The notes under the pieces are model-generated. The model was not told where the DNA came from. It did not search any database and worked only from the letters and a program-made list of their open reading frames with translations. Below, piece by piece: positions 41,497-59,805 of a stretch of DNA of 64,000 nucleotides. Source of the stretch: Desulfatiglandales bacterium (GTDB taxonomy: Bacteria; Desulfobacterota; DSM-4660; Desulfatiglandales; Desulfatiglandaceae). The stretch lies in the NCBI GenBank assembly GCA_963666345.1, contig OY762721.1, forward strand, positions 704,001 to 768,000. Direction: 5' to 3'. Each line of letters opens with the position of its first letter. Positions within the stretch are counted from its first letter, which is position 1. A program made the position numbers and the translations under genes.

Positions 41497-42291
41497 ATGA
41501 AGACCTATGACATAATCCGTTGTGAGGACGGGCTAAGCCGCAGATGCGATCATGAGCTGATTCAGGAAGAGCCCCTTTTGATCCGTGTTGACGGCTCTTC
41601 CTATTCGGTTATCATGCGGACGCCGGGTGAAGAGATACCCCATGCAGCCGGTTTCTGTCTCGGTGAAGGGCTTGTGGATGACCGGAGTGATTTTGCGGCA
41701 ATAGGCTTCTGTGAGGATCTCGACCCGAATGTAGTGGATGTCGGACTCACACCTGAAAGAAGGGAAAAGGCCCATGACATGCTCAATCGAAGGGGCTTTA
41801 TAAGCCAGACAAGCTGCGGCATCTGCGGAAAAGAGATGTTGAAGGACCTGTACCAGATCCTGACGCCCATAGAAGAGGATACCAAAATCGAGCTTGGCAG
41901 GGTCTTTGCCTGTATTGACATGCTTTCGAAAAATCAGATCTATTACCACAAGACCCGGGGCTGCCATGCCGCGATGCTCTTGGATTCCCGTTTTGACACA
42001 TTGTCTTTTGCCGAAGATGTCGGCAGGCATAACGCCCTGGACAAGGCAATCGGGAAGCTCGTACTTGGTGGAGTTCTGCCGGATGCCTCAGTTCTGATTC
42101 TATCTTCCAGGATAAGTTACGAACTGGTGCAGAAGGCGGCCCGGGCCCGCCTGCCCGTTATAGTAGGCCTGTCCCGGCCTACGGCCCTTGCCGTTGAAAT
42201 GGGCCGGTCTCTTAATATGACCCTGGCATGCACTGCAAAGGATTCCGAGCTGATAATTTTTTGTGGAGAAAAACGGATTATAAGAAAATAG
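41497..42291 (+). CDS. fdhD: Formate dehydrogenase accessory sulfurtransferase FdhD
   Basis: EEPL, MRTPG, SCGICG, EDVGRHNALDK and SSRISYELVQK motifs. Confidence 0.95.
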   Translation: MKTYDIIRCEDGLSRRCDHELIQEEPLLIRVDGSSYSVIMRTPGEEIPHAAGFCLGEGLVDDRSDFAAIGFCEDLDPNVVDVGLTPERREKAHDMLNRRGFISQTSCGICGKEMLKDLYQILTPIEEDTKIELGRVFACIDMLSKNQIYYHKTRGCHAAMLLDSRFDTLSFAEDVGRHNALDKAIGKLVLGGVLPDASVLILSSRISYELVQKAARARLPVIVGLSRPTALAVEMGRSLNMTLACTAKDSELIIFCGEKRIIRK

Positions 42292-42293
42292 TA

Positions 42294-42884
42294 TTAAGTT
42301 GAAGGAAAATAAAGCGCCCTGGTTAAAACATAGGCTGCCTGCAGGGCCTCTGTAGGGCAAAGCGGAAAGCATTCCTTGCAGTCCCAGCACTCCTTGGCCG
42401 CTATCTCCGGGATGAAATTTATTTCTTTTCTCGTTCCTCTGTCTACAAATCCGACAGCGAACTTCTTTTTTACCTCTGCGCAGTATCTTACACAGAGACC
42501 GCAATGGATGCAAAATGAGGCCTCTTTTTCAAAACGGTCTTTGTCTGCTCCATACTCTTTAGCCAGCTCCTTCAATTCAAAGGCATCCGGCGCGTGAGCC
42601 AGCAGCAGCTCCAGGATTAATTTTCGAATTCTATCCACCTTCTCGGATCTGGTTCTCACTATCAGATCCTGTTCCACCGGAAAAAGGCAGGAAGCAACGA
42701 GCCTTGTCCGGCCGCCGATTTCCGCCTCTACCGTGCAGATCCGGCAACCCCCGTAAGGCTCCAGTTTCTCGTGGTGGCAAAGTGTCGGGATAAATATACC
42801 CACACTTTGTGCCGCCTCCAAAATGGTCATTCCTTGGGTGGCTTTGACCTTTTTTCCATCAATCTTTAAAAGAATTTCACTCAT
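42294..42884 (-). CDS. bamI: Class II BCR subunit BamI (NuoG N-terminal-like Fe-S protein)
   Basis: IPTLC, GGCRIC, CIHCGLC and CWDCKEC motifs; operon position. Confidence 0.88.
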   Translation of the reverse strand: MSEILLKIDGKKVKATQGMTILEAAQSVGIFIPTLCHHEKLEPYGGCRICTVEAEIGGRTRLVASCLFPVEQDLIVRTRSEKVDRIRKLILELLLAHAPDAFELKELAKEYGADKDRFEKEASFCIHCGLCVRYCAEVKKKFAVGFVDRGTRKEINFIPEIAAKECWDCKECFPLCPTEALQAAYVLTRALYFPST

Positions 42885-44809
42885 TTTTGTTTACTCTTTC
42901 TGGCTATGGTTCTTTCCTCTTCAGGGATAGAAGGCGGTACAGGCTCGCCGGAAATCTTTTTAACCGCAGAAAAACGAGACGGGCAGACTTCAAAGCAGGT
43001 TCCGCACTTTGTGCATTTGTCCTGGTCGATTACATGGATCATATTCTTGCCTCCGATAATGGCCCCGGCAGGGCACTTCCTGCCGCAGATCATACAGGCC
43101 AGGCACTTATCCGGATCAATATGAAACGAGATCAGCTCCTTGCACGAAAGAGCCGGGCACCGCTTCTCCTTGATGTGCGCCTCATACTCTTCTCTGAAGT
43201 AGCGCAATGTGCTTAAAAACGGGTTGGCCGCACTCTTTCCCAGGGCACAAAGGGAGGCCTCGCTCAGCAGTTCGGCTAACTCCTCCAAGAGCTCGATATC
43301 GCCCTCCCTTCCCTTTCCCAGGGTGATATTGGTGAGGATCTTGAGCATCTGCCTCATGCCTTCACGGCACGGCACGCATTTACCGCACGATTCATCGGTG
43401 AGGAAGTCAAGGAAGTACCTTGACACATCAACCATGCAGGTATCTTCATCCATTATAATCATCCCACCTGAGCCCATCATTGAACCGGCCTTGGTGAGTT
43501 CATCGAAACCGACTTCCAAATCCAGCAGTTCCTCAGGGATACATCCTCCGGACGGCCCTCCGGTCTGCACCGCCTTGAATCTCTTTCCCCCTGGGATTCC
43601 ACCTCCTATCTTGTAGATAATATCTCTCAGGGTAGTGCCCATGGGTACTTCCACAAGGCCTGTATTGGTTATCTTACCGACCAGGGAGAAGATCTTCGTG
43701 CCCTTGCTTTTTTCGGTTCCGAATTGATTAAACCAGTCAGCGCCTTTATTGATGATAAGCGGCACATTGGCCCATGTCTCGACATTGTTCAAAACGCTCG
43801 GTTTATCCCACAGGCCCTTGACGTTTGAGCGGATATACTTGGGTCTGGGCTCTCCGGCCCTGCCTTCCAAAGCAGTCATCAGGGCGGTGGATTCACCGCA
43901 GACGAAGGCGCCGGCCCCCTGGTGCACTTTGACGATGAAATCAAAGCCTGAGCCGAGGATGTTTTCCCCGAGAAAGCCATACTCCTCGGCATTCCGGATA
44001 GCGAGGTTCACATTTTCAACCGCTAAGGGATATTCCTGTCGAACATAGATATAGCCCTCGTGGGAGCCGATGGCATAGGCGCCTATGGTCAACCCCTCCA
44101 GGATTGAATGAGGATTTCCCTCAAGAAGGCTCCTGTCCATATAAGCACCCGGGTCCCCTTCGTCCGCGTTGACGATCACATATTTTGTTTCATCAGGGGC
44201 ATCGCGGGATCCCTCCCACTTTCTCCCTGCGGGAAAGCCGCCGCCGCCCCTGCCTCGCAGGTTGGATTTCTTGACTTCCTCAACCACCTCCTCCGAGGTC
44301 ATCTCAGACAGGACCCTGGCCAATGCGGAATACCCTCCGATTGCCAGATAGTCATCAATGCTCTTGGGATCGATATTACCGTTTGAGCCGAAAACAAGCC
44401 GTTTCTGGTTCTTGTAAAAGGGGATTTCAGATTCATGAACTATCTTTTCATTGGTTTCGGGGTCGGTATAGAGCAACCGCTCTATGACCTTCTTTTCTTT
44501 TATGGTCTGGGAGACGATTTCAGGGACATCCTCAGGCTTTATTTGCAGGTAGCATATTTCCTCAGGGTGAATAACGATAATAGGACCCCTCTCACAAAAA
44601 CCATGGCAACCGGTCTTCCTGATTTCGACCTCATCACTTAAGCCCTGTTTCTTTATCTCCTCTTCAAGACTCCGGGCCACATCACTGCTGCCGGAGGCAT
44701 GGCAGGCAGATCCGGAACAGAGTGTAATACAGGGCTTATTCGGGTCTCTTTTCGACAATATGCCCTTTCTTAATTCTTCCAATTCAGAGGGCGAATTTAA
44801 CCGTGGCAT
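42881..44809 (-). CDS. bamH: Class II BCR subunit BamH (NuoF-like NADH-binding flavoprotein)
   Basis: LRGRGGGGFP, NADEGDPG, FVCGES and ESCGKCVPCREG motifs; C-terminal ferredoxin. Confidence 0.9.
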   Translation of the reverse strand: MPRLNSPSELEELRKGILSKRDPNKPCITLCSGSACHASGSSDVARSLEEEIKKQGLSDEVEIRKTGCHGFCERGPIIVIHPEEICYLQIKPEDVPEIVSQTIKEKKVIERLLYTDPETNEKIVHESEIPFYKNQKRLVFGSNGNIDPKSIDDYLAIGGYSALARVLSEMTSEEVVEEVKKSNLRGRGGGGFPAGRKWEGSRDAPDETKYVIVNADEGDPGAYMDRSLLEGNPHSILEGLTIGAYAIGSHEGYIYVRQEYPLAVENVNLAIRNAEEYGFLGENILGSGFDFIVKVHQGAGAFVCGESTALMTALEGRAGEPRPKYIRSNVKGLWDKPSVLNNVETWANVPLIINKGADWFNQFGTEKSKGTKIFSLVGKITNTGLVEVPMGTTLRDIIYKIGGGIPGGKRFKAVQTGGPSGGCIPEELLDLEVGFDELTKAGSMMGSGGMIIMDEDTCMVDVSRYFLDFLTDESCGKCVPCREGMRQMLKILTNITLGKGREGDIELLEELAELLSEASLCALGKSAANPFLSTLRYFREEYEAHIKEKRCPALSCKELISFHIDPDKCLACMICGRKCPAGAIIGGKNMIHVIDQDKCTKCGTCFEVCPSRFSAVKKISGEPVPPSIPEEERTIARKSKQK

Positions 44810-44818
44810 AATTTTACC

Positions 44819-45292
44819 TTATTCGTAGTTTTTTAAAACACCCGCCGTCCCGGCCGGAGTCATCTTACCATGAGTCTTACCGTCGATTTCCATCACCGGT
44901 CCCAAAGCGCAGCAGCCGAGGCAGTTAACGGTCTCCAGGCTGAATTTTAAATCCAGGTCCGTTTCACCCGGTTTAATTCCTGTCAGTTCCTGCATTGCGT
45001 CGAGCACACGCGGCGCCCCTCGAACATGACAGGCGGTGCCCATACAGATGTGAATCTCATGACGTCCCTTCGGAACCAGGCTGAAGGCCTTGTAAAAGGT
45101 AGCGATATGCTGTATCCGGGTTAAAGGGACCTCAAGTTTTTCGCTGACCCTGTCTAATGCCTCCTTGGGAAGCCAGTGATTTTCACTCTGAATGTCCAGT
45201 AATACCTGAATAAGGGAACTGGCTTCGCCTTTATGTTTGTCAATAATCTGATCGATTCTGCCGTTATCCATGGTCGCAGTCCTTATCCTCAT
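44819..45292 (-). CDS. bamG: Class II BCR subunit BamG (NuoE-like 2Fe-2S)
   Basis: CMGTAC...CLGCC motif. Confidence 0.9.
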   Translation of the reverse strand: MRIRTATMDNGRIDQIIDKHKGEASSLIQVLLDIQSENHWLPKEALDRVSEKLEVPLTRIQHIATFYKAFSLVPKGRHEIHICMGTACHVRGAPRVLDAMQELTGIKPGETDLDLKFSLETVNCLGCCALGPVMEIDGKTHGKMTPAGTAGVLKNYE

Positions 45293-45300
45293 CTTTCACC

Positions 45301-46068
45301 CTAGGCCAGGGCAAAACGTTTTCCGCCTTCATCGTACCTGACAAATCCCTGTCTTGAGGAACTGTTCATGTGTCTTGATACTTCAGATGGGTTCAGTCCC
45401 AGAATTTCAGAGATTTCTCCCGTTGAAAGGGGTTTTTCCCTGAGTAGCGACAAAATCTGGCTTATTGCCAGTTTTTCCGCGATTAATTCATTAAACAACC
45501 TGTCTAGCTCGTCACCGCCGAAAAATTTTCTATAGGTCTCTTTCGATTTGACAGGAACTCTCAGTCTCTCCCTTTCCACCAGTTTGATGTAAGGGACCAA
45601 CCTATTAACCGCTTCAAGTTTAAACCTTAACCCGTTTTCATCTATCCCTTCGCTCGTGCCGAGCGGCCCCAGTTCCTTGATTTTTCTTCCAAAATCGCTG
45701 ACAACCTCCGTAAACAGGATCCCGTCACCGGAAGACATAAATTCAATCCTTAACCGTTCAGGGTTAAGGCCTATCTGTTCCATTATTTTTCTGCATAAGA
45801 GCACCATGCCCAATGCATCGTAATTTCCCTGAGTAATGTAATTACATTCATTAAGACGGCAGCCGCCTATAAACACCCCGTCCATTCCGTTCAAAAAGGC
45901 CCGGATTACAAATGCCATGTCAACCCTGCCGGAACACATGACACGAATAAGCCTGGTCTCGGTCGTATATTGTAGCCTGGAAACTCCAGCCATATCAGCA
46001 GCGCCGTAAGCTCACCAATGGCATACGAAACCTAATATCCTGGGTTTAAATTTGGCTCCTGCGCTCAT
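45301..46068 (-). CDS. bamF: Class II BCR subunit BamF (MvhD-like selenoprotein with C-terminal wHTH)
   Basis: The ORF extends through an in-frame TGA (46012-46014): MSAGAKFKPRILGFVCHW-U-AYGAADMAG. Also RVMCSGR and GCRLNEC motifs. Confidence 0.9.
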
Positions 46069-46201
46069 GTGTTTTCACCTCTTTTATTGCTCATTGAAAA
46101 ACAAAGGCTGTCAGACCTTTATCAAAGACAGTACGCCTTGCACCCTGTCCCTTGAGCCTGTTAATCAGTCCTCACCCAAAATTATCCTTTTACGGATTCG
46201 C

Positions 46202-46316
46202 GCTTTCAGCAGTCAGATTTCAGCGATCAGCAAAAAATGCATATCGACTAATTGGGCTGAGTGCTGATAGCTGATAGCTGGACGTCCCATCCTGAAATCT
46301 CTGATTTCCGGATGGG
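46202..46316. repeat. Inverted 7-mer arrays plus GC hairpin between bamE and bamF
   Basis: (GCNNTCA)x4 ... (GCTGANN)x3-4, then CCCATCCTGAAATC-TCT-GATTTCCGGATGGG. Confidence 0.7.
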
Positions 46317-46322
46317 CGTTAA

Positions 46323-49300
46323 TTACACATCTCCAACAGCGGCATCCATTTGACGAATAATCTCCTCATCTGAAACCGCCGCATCGATCTGGCTGAAGAT
46401 TTCATCATTGGTAAAGTGCTTTAGAAAAATGGCGTTTGTCGGGCACTTGGCGTTGCACACACCATCTCCTTTACAGAGAACGGGATTAACCCACGCCTTT
46501 CTGCCTTGAGTTGTATCACGAAACTCTATGGCGCCGTAGGAACAAGCCGTAATACATGCCCCGCACGATACGCAATCATCCTCCCTTACCTCGCAGACGG
46601 AACCGGAGGCAGTGACTGAATCCTGTGAGAGAAGGGCAATGGCGCGCCCGGCAGCCCCATAGGACTGGTTAATAGCCTCAGATATATGTTTGGGGTAGTG
46701 GGCTGTTCCACACAGAAAGACACCTTCCGTGGCAAAATCAACAGGTCTTAATTTGACATGGGCTTCCTTGAAAAAACCATCCGGCCCTAGAGTGACCTTG
46801 AACAGTTCAGATACTTCTTTGCTTTTCTTTGAAGGAATAACCGCTGCAGATAAAACAAGATAATCCGCTTCAACAGCCAGCTTCCGGCCTAAGATCGGAT
46901 CAGTTACAGCCACCCTTAAAACCGGCCCTCCCTCTCCCTCGGCAGGCTCCACCTCGGGCTTGTCATCCGGCTCATAACGGATAAACTTCACATCCTTTTC
47001 CGAGGCTTCACGGTAATAATCCTCCATTAGCCCGTACGTTCTCATATCCCGAAACAGGACATAGATATCCATGCCGGGGTTTATTTCCTTCAATTTCAAG
47101 GCGTTCTTTACGGCCTGGCTGCAACATACCCTGGCGCAATAATTTCTCTCTTCATTTCTGCAGCCTACACATTGAATCATCACGACAGTTTGTGCATTAA
47201 CCAGTTTTTCGTTTTCTTCGAAGATCTGTTCCTCCAGCTCCAGCTGGGTCATGACCCTTTCATCTTCATCATAAAGGTATTCAGTGGGTCTGTATTCATC
47301 AGCACCAACAGCAATGACGGCCGCCCCATGTTTTATCTCAGTTAGACCTCTTTCCGATTTTACCCTGGTTACGAAGTTCCCGACATAACCGGCAGCATCC
47401 GTAATAGAGCTATTAAGGTATACATGTATCAAGGGATGCTGATAAACCTTCCGTACAAGATCACGTAAATATGCCTGAACATCCAGCCCTTCCAGGGTGT
47501 AATGGATCCTTCTTGCTATTCCCCCTAAGTCCGACTCCTTTTCCACCAAGTAAACCTCATGCCCCTGCCTGGCTATGGACAGAGCACAATTCATGCCGGC
47601 GATACCTCCCCCCACCACTAACGCGGTCTTGTTTACCGGCAGATCAATTTCCTGCAAAGATTCCAGATGGCACGCTCGAGCTGTTCCCATTCGTACCAGA
47701 TCCTTTGCCTTTTGGGTGGACTCTTCAGGTTCTTTGGAGTGGACCCAGGAGTTATGCTCCCTGATATTAGTCATTTCCAGAAGATATTGATTGATTCCCG
47801 CTTCCCGGACGGTGTCCCGGAACAGCGGTTCAAGTGTCCTCGGACTGCAGGCGGCGACAACCACTCGATTAAGCCCTTTTTCCTTTGCAATATCTGCTAT
47901 TTCTTTGGCGGAATTGGTGGTACATGAAAAGAGCTGCTCCTGAGCGTAGGCAACATTAGGCAGGGTCAAGGCATAGTCAACCACGGAAGTAACATCCACC
48001 ACCCTCCCGATATTGGCGCCGCAATGACACACAAAAACTCCTACCCTCGGCTTTTCTTCTGACACATCCCTTTCAGCGGGATATATCCTTTCCTGTGTCA
48101 GTTTCCCCCTTCTGTAGTCGAGGATCTCACCACACTGGGATCCGGCTCCGCTGGCCGTAATGACGGACTCGGGGATGTCCAGCGGGCCCTGAAAGGCTCC
48201 GCTCACAAAAATTCCCGGACAGGATGTCTCAATCGGATTAACGGGATTGGTTTTACAGAAGTTGTGAGAAGTAAGCTCTATTTTGAACATTTCCGCCAGC
48301 TCATTATGATCGGCAGGAGGATTTAATCCGACAGACAACACCACCAGATCGAATTCTTCCTCTTTTACCCCCTCGTCGGAAGTAGCATATCTTAGGGTCA
48401 CATTCCTGGTTCCGGGGATCTCTTTTCCTATTGATACGTAGCTTCTTACAAACCTGACGCCCGGCAGATCAGCGGCCCGTTGATAATATGTCTCAAAGTC
48501 CTTGCCATGGGAACGAATATCGTTGTGGAATATGGTACAGTCCACATCAGGATAATGATCTTTCGTCAAAAGCACCTGTTTCTGGGTATAGGTGCAACAT
48601 ACGGCCGAACAATAGCTGTTATCCCCCTCGGTAACCCGTCTTGAACCTACGCATTGGATCCATGCTATCTTATGGGGATGTTTATCGTCTGAAGGCCTCC
48701 TTACCTCACCCTCATATGGTCCGGTCGCAGACAGTAACCGTTCAAAGTCAAGACTGGTTACCACGTTCGGCATCGTTCGATAGCCATACTCATCGTTCAC
48801 CCCGGGATCAAACGGCTCAAAGCCCGGAGACAGGAGTATCGCTCCTACCTTTACTTCCATCTTTTCCGGCTGCTGGCTGAAATCTATGGCGCCGTTCTCA
48901 CAAACCGCTTCACAAATACGGCATTTCTTCTCTTTAAGATAGAGACAGTTTTCATCTATATAGCTGATAAGAGGAACTGCTATGGAAAAGTATATATGGA
49001 CGGCCTTATTCGTGGACAATTCCTGATTATACGGATCAGGAATCAAAACCGGGCAGTATTCGGCACAGGTGGCACAGCCGGTACACTTATCCTCGATAAT
49101 GTATCTGGGCTTTTTTATCAGGGTTACCCTGAAATCACCCTTTTGCCCTTCTACGTCTTCAACTTCCGTATAGGTCAGTATTTCGATATTTGCATGACGG
49201 TCGGCCTCGACCATTTTGGGTGCAAGTATTCATGTGGAGCACTCATTGGTGGGGAACGTCTTGTCAAGCTGACCCATATGGCCGCCGACCGACGGTCCCT

Positions 49301-49445
49301 TCTCGATCAAATAGACCTTAAAACCGGCAGTGGCAAGATCAAGAGAGGCCTGAATCCCGCTGATCCCTCCTCCCACAACCATTACGTCTGCAAAATTACC
49401 TGATCCAAGACCTTTACGAAGCTGTTCAATTTGTTCTTTTCCCAC
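46323..49445 (-). CDS. bamE: Class II BCR subunit BamE (tandem HdrA-like flavoprotein), selenocysteine at codon 72
   Basis: The 71-aa and 963-aa ORFs are in frame across TGA 49230-49232: [21 protein letters not shown], matching the HdrA CxxC motif. Two GGG FAD motifs; 1040 aa in total. Confidence 0.9.
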
Positions 49446-49520
49446 GTCCGTCCGCCTTTATCAGATTTAAAGACCCTAAAAATCATCCGTATCCGGAATT
49501 AACCCGTTTCATGATAAGCG

Positions 49521-50672
49521 CTAAATCACTTCCTGAACGATTTCGGTTATGTCCTTGATCTCTATTTTTTCGTCCACACCCATGGTGATTCTGCTGTCTT
49601 CAAACATGGTAATACAGTATGGGCAGGCCGTAGCCAGCACCTCAGCCCCCACGCCCATGGCCTGCTCTATTCTGAGGTCGGAGAATCTTTCACCCTTTTT
49701 AGTCTCCATCCAGACCCTGCCGCCTCCCCCTCCGCAGCAGAGGCTGTCCGCCCGGGAGTCAGGCATCTCATTCAGCTCCAGACCGGGTATCTTCTTCAAG
49801 ACCTCCCTCGGCTCGTCATATATGCCGTTATGCCGACCCAGGTAACAGGGATCATGATAGGTGATTTTTTTGGCGTACTCCTTGTTAAGCTCAAGCCTTC
49901 CCTCATTAATAAGCTCAAACAGGTATTGAGATATATGAATCACCTCAAAATTCACCATAAATTGGGGATATTCGTTTTTAAAGGTATGATAACAGTGAGG
50001 AGAATTAACAAGTATTCTTTTTACCCCATTATCGACAAACGTTTTGATATTTTCCTTAGCCAAACGTTTAAACAGTTCTTCATCACCGGTCTTGCGGATA
50101 CTTTCTCCACAGCAGTTCTCCTGTTCACCTAATATCCCGAAATCCACCCCTGCCCGTTTTAGGATATCGGCTGTGGCCTGAGCCACTTTTTTCAACCTCG
50201 GGTCATAGCTGGGATAACAGCCGGGGAAATATAACACTTCCATTTCGTCGGTAAATTTTTTTACGGAAATGCCTTTTGCCCAATCGCCCCTCATTTTGCG
50301 TTCTTCACCAAAGGGATTTCCTTCACCCGTGAGGCCTCCGACCGCAGTACGGAAAGGCTTTACAGAGTCCGGGAAAACGCCGTATTCCGTGGCTATTCTG
50401 CGTAAGGCTATCCCGGATTCTATCTGCTGTACGTCCCTGGGACACTGCTGAGGGCATCTTCCGCAGGTCGTACAAAGCCACATATCTTCATTCTCTATTT
50501 CAGTAAAACCGAACACAGCCTGCCGGACCAGCTTGCGCATGCTGAAGGTTCTAACCCTGTTCCATGGACAAACCGTATCACATAATCCGCATTGAAAGCA
50601 TCTCTTGAAGGCGTCTCCGCCGCTTTCCTTTATAACATCGACGATCTCTTTGTAATCGGCTACATTCTCCAC
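49521..50672 (-). CDS. bamD: Class II BCR subunit BamD (HdrC/HdrD-like, CCG domains)
   Basis: CFQCGLCDTVCP, CTTCGRC, ENCCG, YHDPCYLGR and LCCGGGGG motifs. Confidence 0.9.
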   Translation of the reverse strand: MENVADYKEIVDVIKESGGDAFKRCFQCGLCDTVCPWNRVRTFSMRKLVRQAVFGFTEIENEDMWLCTTCGRCPQQCPRDVQQIESGIALRRIATEYGVFPDSVKPFRTAVGGLTGEGNPFGEERKMRGDWAKGISVKKFTDEMEVLYFPGCYPSYDPRLKKVAQATADILKRAGVDFGILGEQENCCGESIRKTGDEELFKRLAKENIKTFVDNGVKRILVNSPHCYHTFKNEYPQFMVNFEVIHISQYLFELINEGRLELNKEYAKKITYHDPCYLGRHNGIYDEPREVLKKIPGLELNEMPDSRADSLCCGGGGGRVWMETKKGERFSDLRIEQAMGVGAEVLATACPYCITMFEDSRITMGVDEKIEIKDITEIVQEVI

Positions 50673-50697
50673 GCTCTTTCTCTTTCGCCTTGATGTT

Positions 50698-51237
50698 TCA
50701 GCCCTGCTTTGCCTCGCTCATTCTGGCAATGGTATCCATTATCTTGTCCAATCCATATTTGTCCGCCAGCGATTCCAGCCCTATCTCCAGTTCCTCCAGG
50801 GGCTCATCTTCTTCCACTTCCTCTTCCCTTTCTTCGTAAGTAAGAGCATCGGTTATGCACCACTTAACGCACAGCGGCTCATCCTCGCCTTCGCACATAT
50901 CGCATTTCAGGGGGAGACCGGAATCGGGTTCCTTGAAAAGATCCCTGGACGGGCAGGAAGCCCTGCAGAAGGCACACTCTTCATACTCTTTTCCGTCAAT
51001 CACATATCTGTCTCTTCCCATGCATTCGGAGGGAGTATACTCACCCGCGTAAACAGGGATATAGACATCTCTGAGGGGATCGCGAATCACCCTGATGCGG
51101 GATCTGGCCGGATTATTGCTGCTGTATTTCGGTTCAGAGTGAAAGGCTGAGCAGATGACCTCACAGGCCCGGCAACCGTTGCATAAATCAGCATCAATTT
51201 TAATCGTCTTAATGATTTTCTTTTTTTTCTCGACCAT
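50698..51237 (-). CDS. bamC: Class II BCR subunit BamC (4Fe-4S)
   Basis: CNGCRACEVICS, CAFCRASCP and KCDMC...CVKWC motifs. Confidence 0.92.
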   Translation of the reverse strand: MVEKKKKIIKTIKIDADLCNGCRACEVICSAFHSEPKYSSNNPARSRIRVIRDPLRDVYIPVYAGEYTPSECMGRDRYVIDGKEYEECAFCRASCPSRDLFKEPDSGLPLKCDMCEGEDEPLCVKWCITDALTYEEREEEVEEDEPLEELEIGLESLADKYGLDKIMDTIARMSEAKQG

Positions 51238-51258
51238 GACGGCTACCACCTCTTCACT

Positions 51259-53265
51259 TTAGTTGTTCTCTTCTTCCGCATTAGTCCCTTTGGAAGGCTC
51301 ATCTTCACTATCCGTCAAAATCCCCCTCTCTGCAAAATCTTTGCTCACGTAATCCAATCCCAGCTCATGCAGAGACTCTCTGGTAGGGATACCCTCGTTG
51401 TTCCAACCCCTGAACCTGTAATAGGTATCCAGGAGTTCCTTTTCAAGTTCCGGAAATCTTTTCTTCCAGTGGTCCTCCGGAGGCTTCTCATCTTTTCTTC
51501 TCATGCCTCTTCGTATATTAACGGCCCTCACCAAAGTCCGGTATCTTCTGGCCGCCTGTGTCAGCTTGTCCTCATCCATATCGATCCCGGCCCCTGCCGA
51601 GATAAATTTCGGGTAATTGTGTATATGATAAGGGGGTTTAAGCGGAAATGACGATAAACCGGCGCACATGCCGAGCGCGTCATCGATGTAGTGCATCCTC
51701 TCCTGCCAGTCGACGATATCGCAGCACATCTCAACCGTCGGGTAATAGGGGATGGAGTTTTCTCCGCGCATTTCCCAGTCCACAAAGTACTGTTTAAATT
51801 TTTCATCCGGAACATGGTGCCAGTCCTTTACAAACTCTTCCCTGTGCTCTCTTTTGGGAAAAGGCGCCTGGGGGAACTGCCCTTCAATCTGGGTGATGTT
51901 TATCTTCTCGCCGGTGCAATACATCAGGAAATATATGGGATTCAGCATTGACAGTTTAAGAGGCAGCTGCTCATGCTTCTTTATGTTGTTATGGGCATAT
52001 TCCTCCGCGCCCTTGCCGATCTGTCGGGCCGCCCAGTAGGTACCATTTGCCAGGACATCTCCTATCCCTTCCCGCCGGACAATCCGGTCGAGCAGCCAGT
52101 AAAATCTTCCTTTGTTATCGGAGGGCATCCCGGGAAAATCATCATCCGTTAAGATGCCGTTTTCGTAAAGTTCAAGGGCGAATGCCATCACCTGCGGGGT
52201 TGAGTATCCGTCCACACCATATTCCGTAGCACTTTGGGCGATACCCAGACCGAATTCCAGGTCTGCGAAGGCCGCCATGGTATAGGTCAGCTTGGAGAAA
52301 CATTTCATCATGTATGTTGGAATTCCCGGCATGGAGATGGTTGCCCCGCATTTCATCGGACAATTGTAGCAGCTGACCAGCCTCCTCCGCGAGTTTTCAA
52401 GTGTCTCCATCCATTGAGCTGCGATTTCCTCATTCCAAAAATCTTTTCTGCGCACACGGGAATTGCCCCACATGAAATTCTCGGTGTGCCATTTCTCGTC
52501 ATGGACCTTCATCTCCTGCGGTGAGCCAAGCCCGGCCAAAATGGGCATTACCCCCGGAATAGGTCTTTCGTTTCTCCATTTGATATATTCCAGCACCTCG
52601 CTGCACAGTTCCATGAATTCAGCAGGCCGTGCGACATTGATGTCCCTTGTCCCCCGAACGGCTATAGCCTTTAACCCTTTGTCTCCCATAACCGCGCCTA
52701 TGCCCCCCCGGCTGGCACTGGACCTGCCCTGCTCGATGGAAGCGAAATAGACCCTGTTTTCACCGGCCAGGCCGATAGCCGCCACCTGCGCCTTCGGCTC
52801 ATTCAACTCCTGACGAATAAGTTCTTCAGTTTCAAGAGCGCCTTTTCCCTTCAGATGGGAGGCATCGCGTATTTCCACCTTGTCATTGTTTATCCACAAA
52901 TAAACCAGTTCGGGGGACTTGCCGCGAATGACCACCTTGTCGTAACCGGCATATTTCAACTCAGGCGCCCAAAACCCCCCCATCATTGAAAATGCCATTA
53001 ACTTGGTCTGAGGTGAAATGGTGGAAACAATGGTACGATTACAACCGGTAGCGGGTGTGCCGCACAGAAGACCGGCGCTGAATATTAACAGATTATCAGG
53101 AGAAAAGGGTTCAACTTCAGGGGGAACCCTGTCCCACAATATCTTGGCGTTCGTACCCAGGCCCCCCAGATAAAGTTCGGTATCTCTCGGGTCGGTTTCT
53201 TCCCTCTCAATGCTTCCCCGGGACAGATCAATCTCCAGATTAAACCCTGTCTCTGCGTACCTCAT
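51259..53265 (-). CDS. bamB: Class II benzoyl-CoA reductase tungsten subunit BamB (AOR family)
   Basis: MRYAETG start, PQEMKVHDEKWHTEN, SCYNCPMKC and YMMKCF; closely resembles Geobacter BamB as I recall it. Confidence 0.95.
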   Translation of the reverse strand: MRYAETGFNLEIDLSRGSIEREETDPRDTELYLGGLGTNAKILWDRVPPEVEPFSPDNLLIFSAGLLCGTPATGCNRTIVSTISPQTKLMAFSMMGGFWAPELKYAGYDKVVIRGKSPELVYLWINNDKVEIRDASHLKGKGALETEELIRQELNEPKAQVAAIGLAGENRVYFASIEQGRSSASRGGIGAVMGDKGLKAIAVRGTRDINVARPAEFMELCSEVLEYIKWRNERPIPGVMPILAGLGSPQEMKVHDEKWHTENFMWGNSRVRRKDFWNEEIAAQWMETLENSRRRLVSCYNCPMKCGATISMPGIPTYMMKCFSKLTYTMAAFADLEFGLGIAQSATEYGVDGYSTPQVMAFALELYENGILTDDDFPGMPSDNKGRFYWLLDRIVRREGIGDVLANGTYWAARQIGKGAEEYAHNNIKKHEQLPLKLSMLNPIYFLMYCTGEKINITQIEGQFPQAPFPKREHREEFVKDWHHVPDEKFKQYFVDWEMRGENSIPYYPTVEMCCDIVDWQERMHYIDDALGMCAGLSSFPLKPPYHIHNYPKFISAGAGIDMDEDKLTQAARRYRTLVRAVNIRRGMRRKDEKPPEDHWKKRFPELEKELLDTYYRFRGWNNEGIPTRESLHELGLDYVSKDFAERGILTDSEDEPSKGTNAEEENN

Positions 53266-53406
53266 TTTTTTCCCCTTCTGGCTGACCCGAATCCGCAGAC
53301 AGCCCTTCCCTTAATCACGGATTGCAGGCACTTAACAAAAAACTGTCTTCACCACTCAAAACTTCAATAGACCGCAAATAACACATACTCAGAGGATCCC
53401 GGAAAA

Positions 53407-53859
53407 TCAGTGGTCCAGGTCCCTGCTGAGGTTTATGAAGTTGCTCCTGTCAAATCCAAGGGTCTTGAAAAAGGACAGGAGATCCGCCGAATCCCACCTT
53501 ACAGAGGTAAAGATCCTGCTTATGCCCTGCTCACCGCATACCCTGAAGATCTCTTCAGCAAGCTTCACGCCTATACCCTGTCCCATGAATCCGGGTGACA
53601 CACCCATGGTGGCGATCCACGCACTTTTTTCAAGCCCGAATCCGCCGTTCAGCAGGTAGGTAATCATAAATCCGGCGATCTTTCCGTCTATCTCGGCCAC
53701 AAAACTCAAATTCCGGCTGTCTATCTCCTGATCTTCTATTAAATGACCGAAATCTATATCAACAGTGGACTTTGTGATGGTGGACTGAATGTCGGCAACA
53801 GCCGCCGCATCTTTGCTATCGATTCTTCTTACAACTAAAGATCCCTTTTCAAGCCCCAT
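53407..53859 (-). CDS. GNAT-fold protein
   Basis: FVAEIDGKIAGF, GVSPGFMGQGIG (acyl-CoA binding loop) and FFKTLGF motifs. Confidence 0.9.
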   Translation of the reverse strand: MGLEKGSLVVRRIDSKDAAAVADIQSTITKSTVDIDFGHLIEDQEIDSRNLSFVAEIDGKIAGFMITYLLNGGFGLEKSAWIATMGVSPGFMGQGIGVKLAEEIFRVCGEQGISRIFTSVRWDSADLLSFFKTLGFDRSNFINLSRDLDH

Positions 53860-53880
53860 ACCGGCCTTTCCAAAAAGCCA

Positions 53881-54072
53881 TTAGTCAATCCTTATTATTT
53901 TGACACGGCAACCCACCCAGTCGGGCGGCAAATATACCCGCCCGCTGTTACCGCTCAGCCTTACAACCTTCTCGAGCATTTCTTCACCATAGACCTCGAA
54001 TTTCACCTTTCTTTGCCCTCCTTCAGAGTCCTGAGGCTGCCCGGGCTTTGATTTTTTTTTATCAGCCATCAT
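53881..54072 (-). CDS. DUF2080 family small protein (AbrB/MazE-like swapped hairpin)
   Basis: EEMLEKVVRLSGNSGRVYLPPDWVG.RVKIIR. Confidence 0.8.
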   Translation of the reverse strand: MMADKKKSKPGQPQDSEGGQRKVKFEVYGEEMLEKVVRLSGNSGRVYLPPDWVGCRVKIIRID

Positions 54073-54162
54073 TCTCACATTTGTTTTCTGTCCTGGGCCG
54101 AATAAAAGGCCCTAATATATTGTTATAGTTGCTTTTAATTTCCACTTAGGTACCATTTCAGC

Positions 54163-54208
54163 AACTACAAATTAACTACAATCTAGCTATAAAGTAACTA
54201 TATGTCAA
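54163..54208 (-). promoter_or_regulatory. Sigma70 promoter overlaid by four 11-bp direct repeats
   Basis: TTGACA (54208-54203)-N17-TAGATT; plus-strand repeats are AACTACAAATT, AACTACAATCT, AGCTATAAAGT, AACTATATGTC. Confidence 0.75.
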
Positions 54209-54532
54209 GGAAAAAACAGGCCTCTCGGCATGTCCTTACCATGTGCCTCTAAGGTAAAAATAGGGAAGATTTCGGGAGAAGATATTGTGAATGGTTATTA
54301 AAATTATATCAAAGGATGGAGCCTGTCTTTAATAAAATACCAGATCCCTTTTCCGCCGACAGAATCCTGAAGATCAAGAGGAACCTCTATCCTGAAGCAG
54401 TATGCATATGGTGTTCTGATTTGATATGACGGTGAAGAAATAGATTAAATTGATCCGGGCATCAACCCGCCTCCTTGTACCCAAAGTGAGTAAGTATTGG
54501 GTGTAAGGGATGGATTCAATCGGGTAGGCAAT

Positions 54533-54559
54533 AAAAAAACCCACCGTTTCCGGTGGGTT
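54533..54559 (-). terminator. Terminator, probably the original tRNA-Leu terminator displaced by the integrated element
   Basis: AACCCACCG-GAAA-CGGTGGGTTTTTTT immediately past the att duplicate. Confidence 0.75.
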
Positions 54560-55184
54560 ATTATTTTTCTGGTGCGAAGGCGAGAGCCACATAGAAAGAC
54601 TTAAAGTATTGGAATTAATGTTAAATGTAAGTGCTTTAAGGGGTGGTAAGTTTAATATACCCGCTTTTGTACCCGCTTTTTACGGGAGTGAGTCGAGATA
54701 GTTCTTTCAGTTACTATTATTTAAAATGTTAAGTTTAAAGTTCAAACTTATTGTTTTTTATATGCCTTGTTCCTTACATATTTTTCTAAATAATTTAAAG
54801 TGCACACTTTATATTGTAGAATATCTCCGTATGGTTTTTTTGGCTACTTCAATAAATGATTTTTCGCCATGATATTCAAGGTTCCAGCACTATCTGAAGA
54901 CCTGTAATCAATAGCAGTTACATACAATTAGCGCTATACGTGAATATGTCAGACGTATCTAAGGTTTTCTGGCCAGCGGATACCCTTAGGGTTCTATAAG
55001 CTATCTCAAGGCGACCCGGTGAAAAATCGATCTCATAGAAAAATCTTTTACTTTGTTACCTCTTTCGTTAAAATACGATTCTGTCAATAGGCGTTGAAAA
55101 TTGACCCATCATCGGCGTCCAAAATTGACCCACCCCTGAGAAAAAAATATGGTTAAATAGTTGAGTAGTTGATCCCTTCTTTAT

Positions 55185-55916
55185 CTATGAAGCTGCGTGT
55201 TTCATTCTCCAGCTTTCGTTACCTGTTTCTATAATTTCACAATGATGAGTCAATCGATCAAGCATGGCCGTAGTCATCTTTTTATCTCCAAAGACTTGGG
55301 GCCATTCACCGAAGGTCAAGTTGGTGGTAATCACTATGGATGTCTGTTCGTAGAGTTTTGATATAAGATGAAAGAGCAGTTGACTGCCGTTTTTGGAAAA
55401 AGGCAGATAACCCAGTTCATCGAGGACCACAAGATCAAATCGAAGTAGTCTTGCTGTGATTTTGCCGGCCAATCCAATCATTTTTTCCTGCTCAAGCTCA
55501 TTTGCCAGATCCACCAGGTTATAAAACTTGCACTTCCTGCCATTCCTTATGGCCTGGGCCGCTATAGTTATGGCTAAATGGGTTTTGCCCGTACCGGTGC
55601 CACCTACAAAAATCAGGTTGATATGTTCGGCTATAAAATCACCCTGATAAATAGACCTAATCTGGGCTTCATCAACACAGGCCCCGTTAAAATCAAAGCC
55701 ATCGATATCTTTAAGGACAGGAAACCTGGCCTGTCCCATACGATATCGGATACTCCTTATATATCTTTCGGCAGCTTCAGCCTTGAGCAGTTCCAGGATT
55801 ACCTTTTCAGGAGTTGAATGGGTCTTGCGTCCATTGGAGACAACTTCATCATAAATGGACTGCATACCCCGCAACTTTAGTTTTTCCATATGGTCCATGA
55901 TATCATTGCGCAGCAT
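55185..55916 (-). CDS. istB: IS21 helper ATPase IstB
   Basis: [17 protein letters not shown] and LDRLTHH motifs. Confidence 0.96.
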
Positions 55917-57420
55917 GGTATCCCTCCCTTACCAAACGTTCATAGCGGTGGCAGTCTGCTATGGGCTCTTGCTTGAGAATCAGATGGGAGGGGATACCCA
56001 AATCAGGCGTGCAATCCTGATCCTGATCCCTGTTTAAAAGATTGAGAACCACCTCTTTACTTACGGCCCTGATCTCTAGGGCCTCCTTACAGGCTTTACT
56101 TACAGCCTCAAGTCCGTAGAAAGGAACAGCATTTAGAATGGCCACAAACTGACGGTCCCAGTCGGAAAAACGGTTTTGAAGCCCATTAAGGACGCCTTGC
56201 ACAGGATGAGGAAGTTGCCAGTCTTTAAAGGGTGCTCCATTACGGAGAGCCCCGGGCTTACGTTCAAGGACCGGGACATAATGCCAGGGATTAAAAATAG
56301 TCTTGTTCTTTCCAAAATGCCTATCATGCTCTCCTACGATACAACCGTTATTTACTATCACTATCCGATCGGCATATACTCTCATATAGACCGCTTTACC
56401 CACCTGGCTGCAATTAACGCTGTATCGGTTCCGGTCATAGGTTACAAGTGAGCTGGGGGTAACCCTGGCTGGACGTTGTGCATATCCATCAAAGGGAGGT
56501 GGTAGATTTATCAGATAGGGTCTCTCTTCACTGTAGACCTGCCAAACCGTCTTATCAGATATTGTTGGATGCTTACGGGTCTTTGCCCAGGTGATGCATT
56601 GTTCTCTAAGCAGCTCGTTTAGGTGTGTGAAATCCCTGGCCTTGATTCGGGGAGTGAAAAATCTCCTTCTGACCACACCTACCTGGTTTTCCACCTGACC
56701 CTTTTCCCAGCCTGCAGCAGGGGTGCAGCTTACCGGTTCAAATAAATAATGGGAACACAGTTGGCTGAAGCGGCTGTTGAACTGTCTTTCCCTTCCTCCC
56801 AGGATCTTGTTAACCACTGTTTTGAGATTGTCATATATGCCTTTACGGCAAACTCCTCCAAAAAACTCAAAGGCCCTGATATGGGCATCAAACACCATCT
56901 CCTGGGTCTCTCTGGGGTAGGCAATACAAAGGAAGTAGCGGCTGTGACATAACCTTATATGTGCGACCTTTGCCTTTACTCTGCTTCCGTCCAGATCTAC
57001 CCACTCATGACTCCAGTCAAACTGAAAGGCTTCTGCAGGATCAAATACCAAAGGTATAAATACCTCCTTTGGCAAGCTCCTTTGATCCTGGTGCCATCTT
57101 TGAACATATCTCCTTACGCTGTCATAGCCACCTTCGTAGCCGTTGAGTTGCAGCTCTTCAAAAAGTATCTGGGCTGTCCTGCGCAGTTTTCTGGGCAGTT
57201 TCTCATCTTCTTCCAGAAAGCCTTTCAGCATGTCTATAAACGGTCCTAGCTTGGGTCTCGGCTGGTTGCTTCGTTCGTACTGAAAAGATGTTTCTCCGCT
57301 CCTTATCGCCTTTTTTACTGTATTTTTGCTAAGGCGCAGATCCTTCGCTGTCTGACGTATGGATTTGCCATCTCTGAGAACAGCTAATCGTATCTTACGG
57401 ATTGTTTCCACTGTGAGCAT
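55903..57420 (-). CDS. istA: IS21 transposase IstA
   Basis: N-terminal HTH; FQFDW, YDNLKT and WEKGQVE (DDE) motifs. Confidence 0.96.
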
Positions 57421-57534
57421 CCCTTTCCGCCTCCTTCTACCATAGTCACAGCAGAATAGAAGGCTTTCAGGGGTGGGTCAATTTTGGACGCCGATTCGCC
57501 CTATAGGTGGGTCATTTTTGCATGCCGATTCACA

Positions 57535-58272
57535 GCTATTTCGATATTTAATATATTTTTCATCAAATCTATCTTGAAGCTGATATATCACTCCATCTTT
57601 GTCTTCAACACAGGCACCGTCCAATCCAACAAGGGTTACTTCCGGGCCTCCTGTTAGCATTTGAAATCCATGTTCAATGTCTATATTTTCAGTGCCTAAC
57701 ATAGGTAAATCCCATACACCATCAATGCTTGTTACGTTCCCCTTAAAACTCATTGTGGAAGGGGGTACTTTACCATCATATTTCTCTGATTCTTCACGTA
57801 TGTGGATGATAGCGGCTTCGATCATATCAGTGATAATATTAGTTTGTTCTTCAGGAGAATGCTTTTTCAATAATCTACTTTTCAACTCTTCATCGTGTCC
57901 CAACCGCTGTGGCCCGTTCTCATTAATCAACTCATCATCTTTTAAGTAAAAACCAATATCGTGCCCAGGAAAATGGACAGCTATCATCCCGTCACTCCTT
58001 CCACGCGTTTCCGCCGTTTGCCAAGATGCCATTTTTCTAAATTTTGTCTCCCACTCCTCAAAAGGAAGGAATTTTTCACCACGTTTGGCATGAGCATGAT
58101 TCACGAAGTTTACTGACAATTTCAGGTGTCTGTCCAGGGCAAGGCGTAATACATCGGATTCATTAACTTCCTCGCCGAACATAATTGATAAATATTTCGC
58201 GGCTTCTGGTATTGTTAGCCAGTTTTTCAACTGAAAAAGTTTACTTTTTCTGAGTGATTTAATGTCGTCCAT
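57535..58272 (-). pseudogene. Phage/satellite-type hypothetical gene truncated by IS21
   Basis: WLTIPEAAKYLS HTH-like N-terminus. The last ~18 aa in the ORF track are read from the IS end. Confidence 0.7.
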
Positions 58273-58290
58273 ATTCACTTACCTTTCAAT

Positions 58291-59529
58291 TTATATGCCT
58301 GCTACTTTACCAAAAGGAATAATCTTTGCGCCGGACTCCAATTGTTGAAGTTTATCTGCCCACCACTGCATTAATTTTTTTCGTTGTTCAATATAATCGC
58401 TCCGATGGTATGCTGCCCTTACTCGGTTGCGTTCTTCATGGGCCAGGGCCTTTTCTATAACGTCACCATCAAAGCCGGACTCATTTGCAATTGTTGAAAA
58501 GGTTGCTCTGAATCCATGAACGGTTGCTTGTGAGTGGTATCCTATCCGATAAAGGGCATAAAGCATTGTGTTTTCTGATAGTTGCTTACTGCCTTGCCTT
58601 ATCCCAGGAAAAAGAAATCCATCTTTCCCCCATAACTTGCCAGCCCTTTCAATTATTGAAAGAGCTTGTTTTGACAATGGAACGGTGTGTGGTTTGTCCA
58701 TCTTCATCCTAGTTGCTGGAATTTTCCAAAGTTTGTTTTCAAGGTCAATCTCATTCCAGGTCGCCCCTCTTACTTCCCCGCTTCTGGAGGCCGTAAGAAT
58801 AGTGAATTGCAATGCAAGTTTGGTGGTGATATGGATATCCCCATAAGATAAATCATGCAAAAACTTAGGCAGATCATCAATGGTGAGAGCGGCCCTGTGA
58901 GTCACTTTTCTACTTTTTAAAACTCCACGCATCTCGCCTGCCGGGTTGTAGGTGGCTTTACCTGTCTGTACTGCGTATCTAAAAATAGCCGTAATTCTTT
59001 GCAGTACCTTGGAAGCTATCTCCAGTGTGCCCCGCTTTTCAATTGGTTTAATTACTTTTAAAATTGTAGGTGGAGTGATTGTGTCTACTGGAAGATCACC
59101 GATGATGGGAAATACGTTCTTACGTAACGAATTAAGCACCGCGGAGGCATGGTTATTACTCCAGCGTTCCTCTTGTTGAGTAATCCACTCTAATGCAACA
59201 AATTCAAAGGTGTTCTTGTTGATTTGTTTTTCTGCTTCTGCTTTGGCAATTTCGGCCTGTCTCTTTTCTTTTCGGGTATGAGCTGGATTTTTACCTTTCT
59301 TGACTATTTCACGGGCCTCTTGCCTCTTAATTCTAGACGTTTCAAGGCTCATCGAAGGATATTCGCCCAGAACAACAGTCGATTCTTTATCTGCCAGCTT
59401 GAACCTATATCGCCACGTTCTTTTCCCGCTTGTGGAAACATGGAGATATAGACCTTTGCCGTCACTGAGTTTATAAGGCTTGTTTTTGGGTTTGGCGTTT
59501 CGAACCGCTACGGCACTAAGCTTTGACAT
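58291..59529 (-). CDS. P4-like tyrosine integrase with Arm DNA-binding domain
   Basis: KLSDGKGLYL, TASRSGE, HGFRATFST and LAH...VRAAY motifs. Confidence 0.95.
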   Translation of the reverse strand: MSKLSAVAVRNAKPKNKPYKLSDGKGLYLHVSTSGKRTWRYRFKLADKESTVVLGEYPSMSLETSRIKRQEAREIVKKGKNPAHTRKEKRQAEIAKAEAEKQINKNTFEFVALEWITQQEERWSNNHASAVLNSLRKNVFPIIGDLPVDTITPPTILKVIKPIEKRGTLEIASKVLQRITAIFRYAVQTGKATYNPAGEMRGVLKSRKVTHRAALTIDDLPKFLHDLSYGDIHITTKLALQFTILTASRSGEVRGATWNEIDLENKLWKIPATRMKMDKPHTVPLSKQALSIIERAGKLWGKDGFLFPGIRQGSKQLSENTMLYALYRIGYHSQATVHGFRATFSTIANESGFDGDVIEKALAHEERNRVRAAYHRSDYIEQRKKLMQWWADKLQQLESGAKIIPFGKVAGI

Positions 59530-59718
59530 TTTGAACCTCCATAAAATGGGTACAAAATAATGGGGGTATGTGGGTGCAAATGTTTGTACCCCCTTTTGTA
59601 CCCGCTTATTTTTAGGAAGTCAATGGAAAGTCTAGGAACACTTTGGATAACAAAAAACCCGCAAATCATTTCTGATCGCGGGTTCCATGTAAACTTAGGA
59701 CATTTTTAGACTAAAAAA

Positions 59719-59805
59719 TGGTGCCGAAGGCGAGACTCGAACTCGCACGGACCTACGCCCACTAGACCCTGAACCTAGCGCGTCTACCAGTTCCGCCACT
59801 TCGGC
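59719..59805 (-). tRNA. tRNA-Leu(CAG)
   Basis: 87 nt, GCCGAAGTGGCGGAACTGGTAGACGCG-CTAGG TTCAGGG TCTAG-long variable arm...CACCA. Confidence 0.96.

Follow-up and report, generated by a model that had tools for sequence, protein, structure and literature searches.

A DUF2080-GNAT gene pair and a helically phased 11-bp repeat as a candidate regulatory system of anaerobic aromatic catabolism

Genes and promoter of the benzoyl-CoA reductase locus

The window analyzed here is a 64,000-nucleotide stretch of a Desulfatiglandales bacterium genome (contig OY762721.1). Its minus strand carries a benzoyl-CoA reductase operon, preceded by two small genes and a promoter with a tandem repeat:

42294..51249, minus strand: bamC, D, E, F, G, H, and I, by domain make-up and order
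51259..53265, minus strand: bamB, tungsten-type catalytic subunit of class II benzoyl-CoA reductase, by AFOR_N and AFOR_C domains and gene order
53407..53859, minus strand: GNAT-fold protein of 150 aa, candidate acyl-CoA sensor, above the PF00583 cut-off
53881..54069, minus strand: DUF2080 microprotein of 62 aa, candidate repressor, above the PF09853 and NF033496 cut-offs
54124..54130, plus strand: lone inverted repeat core, read from the sequence
54163..54202, minus strand: four-repeat array, candidate operator, with core T[A/G]TAG[C/T]T on the minus strand in 11-bp phase
54180..54208, minus strand: sigma-70-type promoter TTGACA-N17-TAGATT, overlapped by repeats 1-3
54538..54559, minus strand: terminator-like hairpin with a T run, parting the promoter from the upstream island

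The bamB-I set of a class II benzoyl-CoA reductase operon is present by domain content and order. The gene order DUF2080, GNAT, and then bamB-I, which the initial annotation had read from the sequence, is confirmed by the PF09853, NF033496, and PF00583 models together with the bam domain order. Both bamE and bamF contain an in-frame TGA (49230-49232 and 46012-46014, respectively) that likely encodes selenocysteine, and BamF carries a C-terminal helix-turn-helix domain. In a check of the same genome for had, oah, and glutaryl-CoA dehydrogenase, TIGR03200, TIGR03201, and NF045552 were all above cut-off; the best match of the hydratase was to TIGR03189, below cut-off. Convergent on bamI is fdhD (41497-42291). 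The bamL gene of Geobacter metallireducens also encodes FdhD, and the correspondence of bamL to DUF2080 was therefore rejected. Metatranscriptome contigs from relatives, mostly less than 90% alike, overlap bamB and DUF2080 as well as parts of the GNAT gene; the promoter is not covered by them, and neither a start site nor co-transcription is visible.

Upstream of the promoter are a terminator and then an integrase island. No adjacent regulator gene, including an Rrf2 gene beside the DUF2080-GNAT pair, was found in the window, which bears out the earlier remark that no conventional regulator is adjacent. The island (54575-59805) is located at tRNA-Leu (59719-59805) and ends approximately 370 bp from the bam promoter. 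It contains a tyrosine integrase (58291-59529) and IS21 istA/istB (55185-57420), has an 11-bp copy of tRNA sequence at its edge (54575-54585), and includes a 21-bp repeat at 54658-54678 and 59587-59607.

Four tandem 11-bp repeats had been described over the promoter, and the sequence confirms this. On the plus strand, the cores (A[A/G]CTA[C/T]A) occupy 54163-54169, 54174-54180, 54185-54191, and 54196-54202, a spacing of exactly 11 bp. On the minus strand, the promoter consists of TTGACA (54208-54203), 17 nt, and TAGATT (54185-54180); with 10 of 12 matches, it ranks highest among 10 promoter-like sites in 52000-56000. Counted along the minus strand, core 1 adjoins the -35 box and core 2 ends at the first base of the -10 box, while core 3 is over the likely transcription start and core 4 is just downstream. 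No sigma-54 site was found in 53261-54560. A single heptamer core occurs 866 times in the 4.16-Mb genome, two heptamers in phase occur at four loci in total, and four in phase occur once, at the bam promoter. An inverted copy had also been reported, at 54123-54130. Its core is present at 54124-54130, but an inverted core downstream of the array occurs in only 3 of 65 related promoters, and the copy is therefore probably incidental rather than a conserved part of the site.

Conservation of the gene pair and of the repeat

DUF2080 is immediately 5' of the GNAT gene in all 80 loci that were fetched with the GNAT. The next gene is bamB in 24 of these, while 10 loci end too early to decide and the remaining 46 have different neighbors, often redox or CoA-enzyme genes. 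Of the DUF2080-GNAT-bam synteny that the initial annotation proposed to examine, the pair itself is fixed, and direct linkage to bamB is seen in these 24 of 80 loci. At the level of whole genomes, a 401-genome sample of the phylum was scored for strong DUF2080 matches (two weak ones, E ~3e-4, were left out). Of the 62 genomes with DUF2080, 60 have the GNAT as well, usually with a single copy of the pair. A BamB-clade gene accompanies it in 55 of the 62, compared with 123 of 401 overall, and counting from coordinates gives at least 33 of the 62 in which the pair precedes bamB by no more than 1 kb. The gene bamB is absent from 7 of the 62 DUF2080 genomes, and DUF2080 is absent from 68 of the 123 bamB genomes.

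Several variations on this arrangement were observed. In more than 20 loci (within L003-L079), a divergent 230-aa gene, transglutaminase-like by reading, and a methyltransferase-like gene lie upstream. The present genome has a second pair (G000:C1:2088257-2088868; L002, L083) that lacks the repeat; its members are 74% and 58% identical, and it follows a CBS-domain gene (AcuB-like by reading) and a formyltransferase-like gene. Genomes of family f17 (L140-L158) have up to seven DUF2080 paralogs each, most without a GNAT; these include paralogs with altered hairpin residues inside operons of CoA ligases, dihydrolipoamide dehydrogenase-like genes, or xanthine-dehydrogenase-family genes.

For the repeat, a matrix was built from the pair loci themselves and applied with a threshold of 12 bits; 77 loci were scorable and three were too short. 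The repeat is upstream of the pair in 67 of the 77, the same loci that trained the matrix: 24/24 that are bamB-linked, 34/43 others, and 9/10 that are cut short. At the same threshold, coding stretches gave 0 of 82 and shuffles 7 of 1,580. Out-of-sample pair promoters have the repeat in 17 of 20 cases, and more distant pair loci have it directly upstream in only 5 of 12. The offset of the array from TTGAC (n = 65) is +6 in 24 promoters, +15 to +17 in 23, +23/+24 in nine, +35 in two, and -25/-26 in seven; TTGAC has the same offset as at the present locus in 24 of these 65 related promoters. With several offsets from the -35 box, the array is therefore no by-product of the promoter sequence. In every case it overlaps or adjoins the polymerase site, in keeping with repression.

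The repeat follows the pair and not bamB. In 20 genomes hand-picked from the 123 with bamB, the 500 bp upstream of bamB contain the repeat in all 5 genomes where the pair is unlinked and in none of the 15 that lack it. The exact two-unit pattern is present in 38 of 62 DUF2080 genomes; among bamB-only genomes it occurs in 8 of 68, and among the rest in 23 of 271. The reversed-pattern control gave 16, 16, and 47 genomes, respectively, and kin genomes, which are not independent, are included in these counts. Of 20 solo DUF2080 paralogs, 19 are without the repeat. At the bamB promoter of two pair-less genomes (L108 and L112) there is a different palindrome, ACTAGTC-N7-GACTAGT, which suggests a third type of regulator.

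The pair and repeat in archaea

A distant GNAT representative retrieved 48 metagenome loci, about nine of them bacterial-type. DUF2080 is present in 36 of the 39 loci that have upstream sequence, and the bacterial matrix scores at least 12 bits in 36 of 38 scored loci, both misses being at contig starts. In the main archaeal clade, DUF2080 consists of nothing but the 47-aa core, and the pair is followed by bzdN and bzdO of a class I reductase (above cut-off in 6/6 tested). Two BzdO proteins from metagenome contigs bear the NCBI name Thermoplasmatales. None of 29 arrays has a TTGAC within 45 bp upstream, and thus none has a -35 box; a TATA-like stretch is found at all 29 by a permissive pattern.

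The occurrence of the same site and the same two genes before another reductase class, and with another transcription machine, is the strongest argument that the pair reads the site. Judging from these sequence comparisons, it is likely that DUF2080 binds the repeats. Alternatively, a different, unlinked regulator could bind them, with the pair merely one of its targets. Direct repeats of 11 bp are typical also of winged-helix response regulators, and arrays without detectable DUF2080 occur in three genomes (G287, G378, and G163, the last two near contig ends). However, in G287 (95% complete), where the array precedes glutaryl-CoA dehydrogenase, bamB is also absent, and the absence of DUF2080 may be an assembly gap. 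Additionally, the 80 loci show no recurring regulator family next to the pair, and the repeat accompanies the pair in both archaea and bacteria, a distribution that an unlinked third gene would need to share. A regulator of this kind is regarded as rather improbable, and binding by DUF2080 is preferred. The helix-turn-helix tail of BamF was also considered as a repeat binder and was excluded, since pair-less genomes with bamF lack the repeat.

Promoters marked by the repeat

The genome was scanned with a matrix trained on other genomes, the window's locus being left out. Ten matches exceeded 17 bits, at six places, while three shuffles gave one to three. The top matches precede an SDR-had-oah-hydratase operon, a CoA ligase-iorAB operon, and the bam operon; further top matches precede a 2-hydroxyacyl-CoA dehydratase-type pair and an FAD oxidase-ligase-thiolase set. 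The sixth place is inside an ORF and is probably due to chance. A weaker match of 16 bits precedes glutaryl-CoA dehydrogenase. The initial annotation had proposed a search for the motif at other aromatic operons, and it is indeed found before had-oah, CoA ligase-iorAB, and glutaryl-CoA dehydrogenase. The repeat-marked 2-hydroxyacyl-CoA dehydratase-type set (G000:C1:3815565-3820226; L099) also includes two activator-like genes, and it scores under the cut-offs of the models for class I benzoyl-CoA reductase.

Two-unit sites away from the pair were surveyed in DUF2080 genomes (neighbors: 22 scanned). By reading, 21 of 29 such sites adjoin genes of acyl-CoA or aromatic catabolism, including iorA at six sites, a molybdo-enzyme flavin subunit at four, and a sodium-pumping decarboxylase subunit and a BamE-like gene at two each; the other eight have neighbors without clear assignment. 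The reading of the repeats as a regulatory site for aromatic acyl-CoA catabolism is well supported and regarded as highly probable. The first reading of the locus as a switch of a single bam operon was thus right about the kind of target, aromatic and acyl-CoA genes, but too small in scope, as a whole regulon and archaeal class I genes are involved.

The GNAT protein and its relatives

The GNAT retains a glycine-rich CoA loop, in which M92 and G97 are invariant. At the positions that are Asn and Tyr in two solved GNATs it carries Ser and Phe instead, within WD and LSFF motifs that are invariant. Therefore, the acyl-CoA loop previously called intact is kept in its glycine-rich part, but the usual Asn and Tyr are replaced. 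In two pair-less genomes, a related GNAT gene is divergent from bamB, and in one of them (G305) an Rrf2 gene then follows; this layout is that of Gmet_2096-2097 and badL-badM, as given in the accessible part of PMC6191541. Profiles of DUF-linked and Rrf2-linked GNATs align over 99.3% of their length (E 1.6e-20) at 23% identity, and the match is specific, with 65-85 bits for Rrf2-linked GNATs compared with 18 for other GNATs of this genome. Eighteen GNAT-only relatives, with unrelated neighbors, no DUF2080, and no repeat, nevertheless outscore the Rrf2-linked GNATs. In a quick tree, the latter nest among the GNAT-only relatives, while DUF-linked GNATs are apart and not sister to them. As the tree separates the two groups despite the specific profile match, the GNAT is regarded as a probable cousin of BadL-type GNATs, and orthology is not claimed. 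The Rrf2-linked GNATs are themselves presumed to be BadL orthologues from gene order and length.

The subfamily is variable in architecture. Many members are tandem two-domain proteins of 300-345 aa, and fusions to a flavin oxidoreductase or to a helix-turn-helix-like domain also occur (P0258, P0268, P0274, P0365, and P0377). The helix-turn-helix fusion is the distant member P0377, and it would be in line with a regulatory role of the subfamily. DUF2080 was found in none of 150 distant GNATs. Two apparent DUF2080-GNAT fusions (P0408 and P0428) were set aside, being single records on 600-800-base contigs that may be frameshift artefacts.

An alternative is that the GNAT acts as an enzyme like BadL, acetylating a small aromatic amine whose product would induce by binding DUF2080. 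However, the profile identity is 23% and the tree branches are separate, a DUF2080 core of 42-47 residues would leave little room for a ligand pocket, and BadL activity itself was too low for kinetics, according to the portion of PMC6191541 consulted. This alternative is considered unlikely, and direct sensing of an acyl-CoA by the GNAT is favored over it.

The pair could also be a type II toxin-antitoxin system, with a GNAT toxin and a DUF2080 antitoxin, that autoregulates and hitch-hikes on catabolic operons. The small gene does precede the larger one, a DUF2080-type antitoxin has been validated with a nuclease toxin (PMC10440598, from the part seen), and a fusion of DUF2080 to PF13274 exists (P0448). 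Nonetheless, the repeat is found at many unlinked promoters of catabolic genes, the pair usually occurs once per genome and is associated with bamB, and the archaeal DUF2080 is a core without an extra neutralizing tail. No toxin or defence model (NCBIfam, PADLOC) matched the GNAT beyond weak generic GNAT matches. A toxin-antitoxin system is thus judged very improbable compared with a catabolic switch. The initial annotation had supposed that the switch was repurposed from such a system; this origin is unsupported, because no toxin model matched and the subfamily of the GNAT includes Rrf2-linked, BadL-type members.

The DUF2080 protein

In an alignment, the last 42 residues of DUF2080 are nearly invariant and the N-terminal tail is variable. 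A hairpin-like stretch, GNSGRVYLP, is present. The AbrB-type model PF04014 is matched weakly by 29 of 36 DUF2080 members, all below cut-off (best E 0.0034), and in hhalign the DUF2080 profile scored 13.3 against 30 AbrB domains, inside the shuffled range of 5.6-15.3. The monomer model has low confidence (pLDDT 57.7), and no solved structure matched the DUF2080 profile. With a weak PF04014 match, a profile score within the shuffles, and a poor model, an AbrB-like fold is only a lead.

Three lysines of DUF2080 (K23, K34, and K57) are invariant. This would suit another mechanism, in which the GNAT acylates a DUF2080 lysine with an acetyl or benzoyl group and DNA binding is switched off, and benzoate-pathway enzymes of Syntrophus are abundantly acylated on lysine (PMC8942843, in the part available). 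However, no conserved deacylase gene was seen beside the pair, and BadM was not acetylated by BadL homologues in the accessible text of PMC6191541. Acylation of the repressor is accordingly given little probability, and the GNAT is treated below as a sensor.

Proposed switch and its significance

On balance, the DUF2080-GNAT pair is probably a two-protein switch of the anaerobic benzoyl-CoA pathway, in which DUF2080 represses and the GNAT senses the inducer. DUF2080 would bind the 11-bp repeats as small dimers, side by side on one helix face, with one dimer per repeat and two to four per promoter. The loaded protein would block RNA polymerase, resulting in both autoregulation and control of the regulon. 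An aromatic acyl-CoA, most likely benzoyl-CoA, would be sensed by the GNAT and repression would be lifted. In this last and less supported step, the GNAT may be mainly a CoA-ester-binding partner and less a fast enzyme, because the usual catalytic tyrosine is absent and a repressor of 42-47 residues would offer little space for a ligand pocket of its own.

More broadly, and more tentatively, the system could be a portable switch, consisting of a 47-residue protein and a GNAT-fold aryl-CoA sensor that use the same 11-bp operator in bacteria and archaea, at sigma-70 and TATA-type promoters alike. It is conceivable, with somewhat less than even confidence, that many sulfate reducers, syntrophs, and sediment archaea use it as the central regulator of anaerobic aromatic degradation that has so far been missing, and that it serves both benzoyl-CoA reductase classes.

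The conserved regulon is real and apparently undescribed, and DUF2080 is a strong candidate for its regulator. A description of the pair as a regulator was not found in the literature covered, from which subscription journals were mostly absent. The induction of benzoyl-CoA reductase in strict anaerobes outside Geobacter is poorly described, with no such regulator in the portions of the literature seen, and an analysis of bam operon regulatory elements has been called for (PMC13119186, in the part read). The present result provides a named candidate regulator, a site, and a regulon. If correct, it would also give a function to the DUF2080 family, whose present annotation is "transposon-encoded", and the repeat could serve to flag unknown aromatic-degradation genes.

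Comparison with known systems

In the parts of the literature consulted, "DUF2080" appears in connection with CRISPR CalpT and toxin-antitoxin networks (PMC10440598, 10.1101/2024.05.08.593097). The pair shares its two-gene layout and likely autoregulation with GNAT-RHH type II toxin-antitoxin systems (PMC2701414, as far as accessible) and with the SpnP2/DUF2080 antitoxin (PMC10440598, likewise). Unlike GNAT-RHH systems, it lacks an RHH domain, matches no toxin model, and is associated with a catabolic regulon.

Likeness to regulators of the AbrB/MazE/SpoVT type consists of a small beta-rich protein with a putative fold, the hairpin-like GNSGRVYLP, and a helically phased site. MraZ, which is of this type, acts on phased direct repeats. 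The AbrB of Geotalea daltonii acts on the rpoN promoter and through rpoN, at a TGGNA-type site and so unlike the present case, according to the available portion of PMC11497800.

Further GNATs have been reported near bam genes. BamK of the G. metallireducens bam cluster (Gmet_2077) is 21.8-fold up on benzoate (PMC1924859), and BamK of Desulfococcus multivorans (Dmul_24550) is directly before bamB2 (PMC5109826). These resemble the present protein, as far as their description goes, in being GNATs of 150-155 aa tied to a bam cluster; they differ in that the parts of both reports consulted describe no DUF2080 partner, operator, or function. In a benzene degrader, a GNAT and a "transposase-associated protein" lie beside BamQ, inside a candidate benzene-activation cluster, with no role assigned in the accessible text of the 2026 paper (PMC13101534). 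According to the same text, that pair was undetected in proteomes and may have no part in benzene degradation. The named ORM2a record of this organism (L063) carries both the pair and the repeat.

The closest parallels are BadL/BadM of Rhodopseudomonas palustris and Gmet_2096/Gmet_2097 of G. metallireducens, where a GNAT is beside a repressor that controls benzoyl-CoA reductase genes (PMC6191541 and PMC1924859, from the parts seen). The GNAT described here belongs to the same broad subfamily as the Rrf2-linked GNATs beside bamB; the comparison with BadL is made through these proteins rather than through the sequence of BadL itself, and the GNATs are on separate branches. The partner is a DUF2080 protein of 47-62 aa with no adjacent Rrf2 repressor, and the 11-bp repeat array is absent from Rrf2-type bamB promoters. 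By analogy, the DUF2080-GNAT system would work like BadL/BadM in its logic, while its different repressor places it outside that group.
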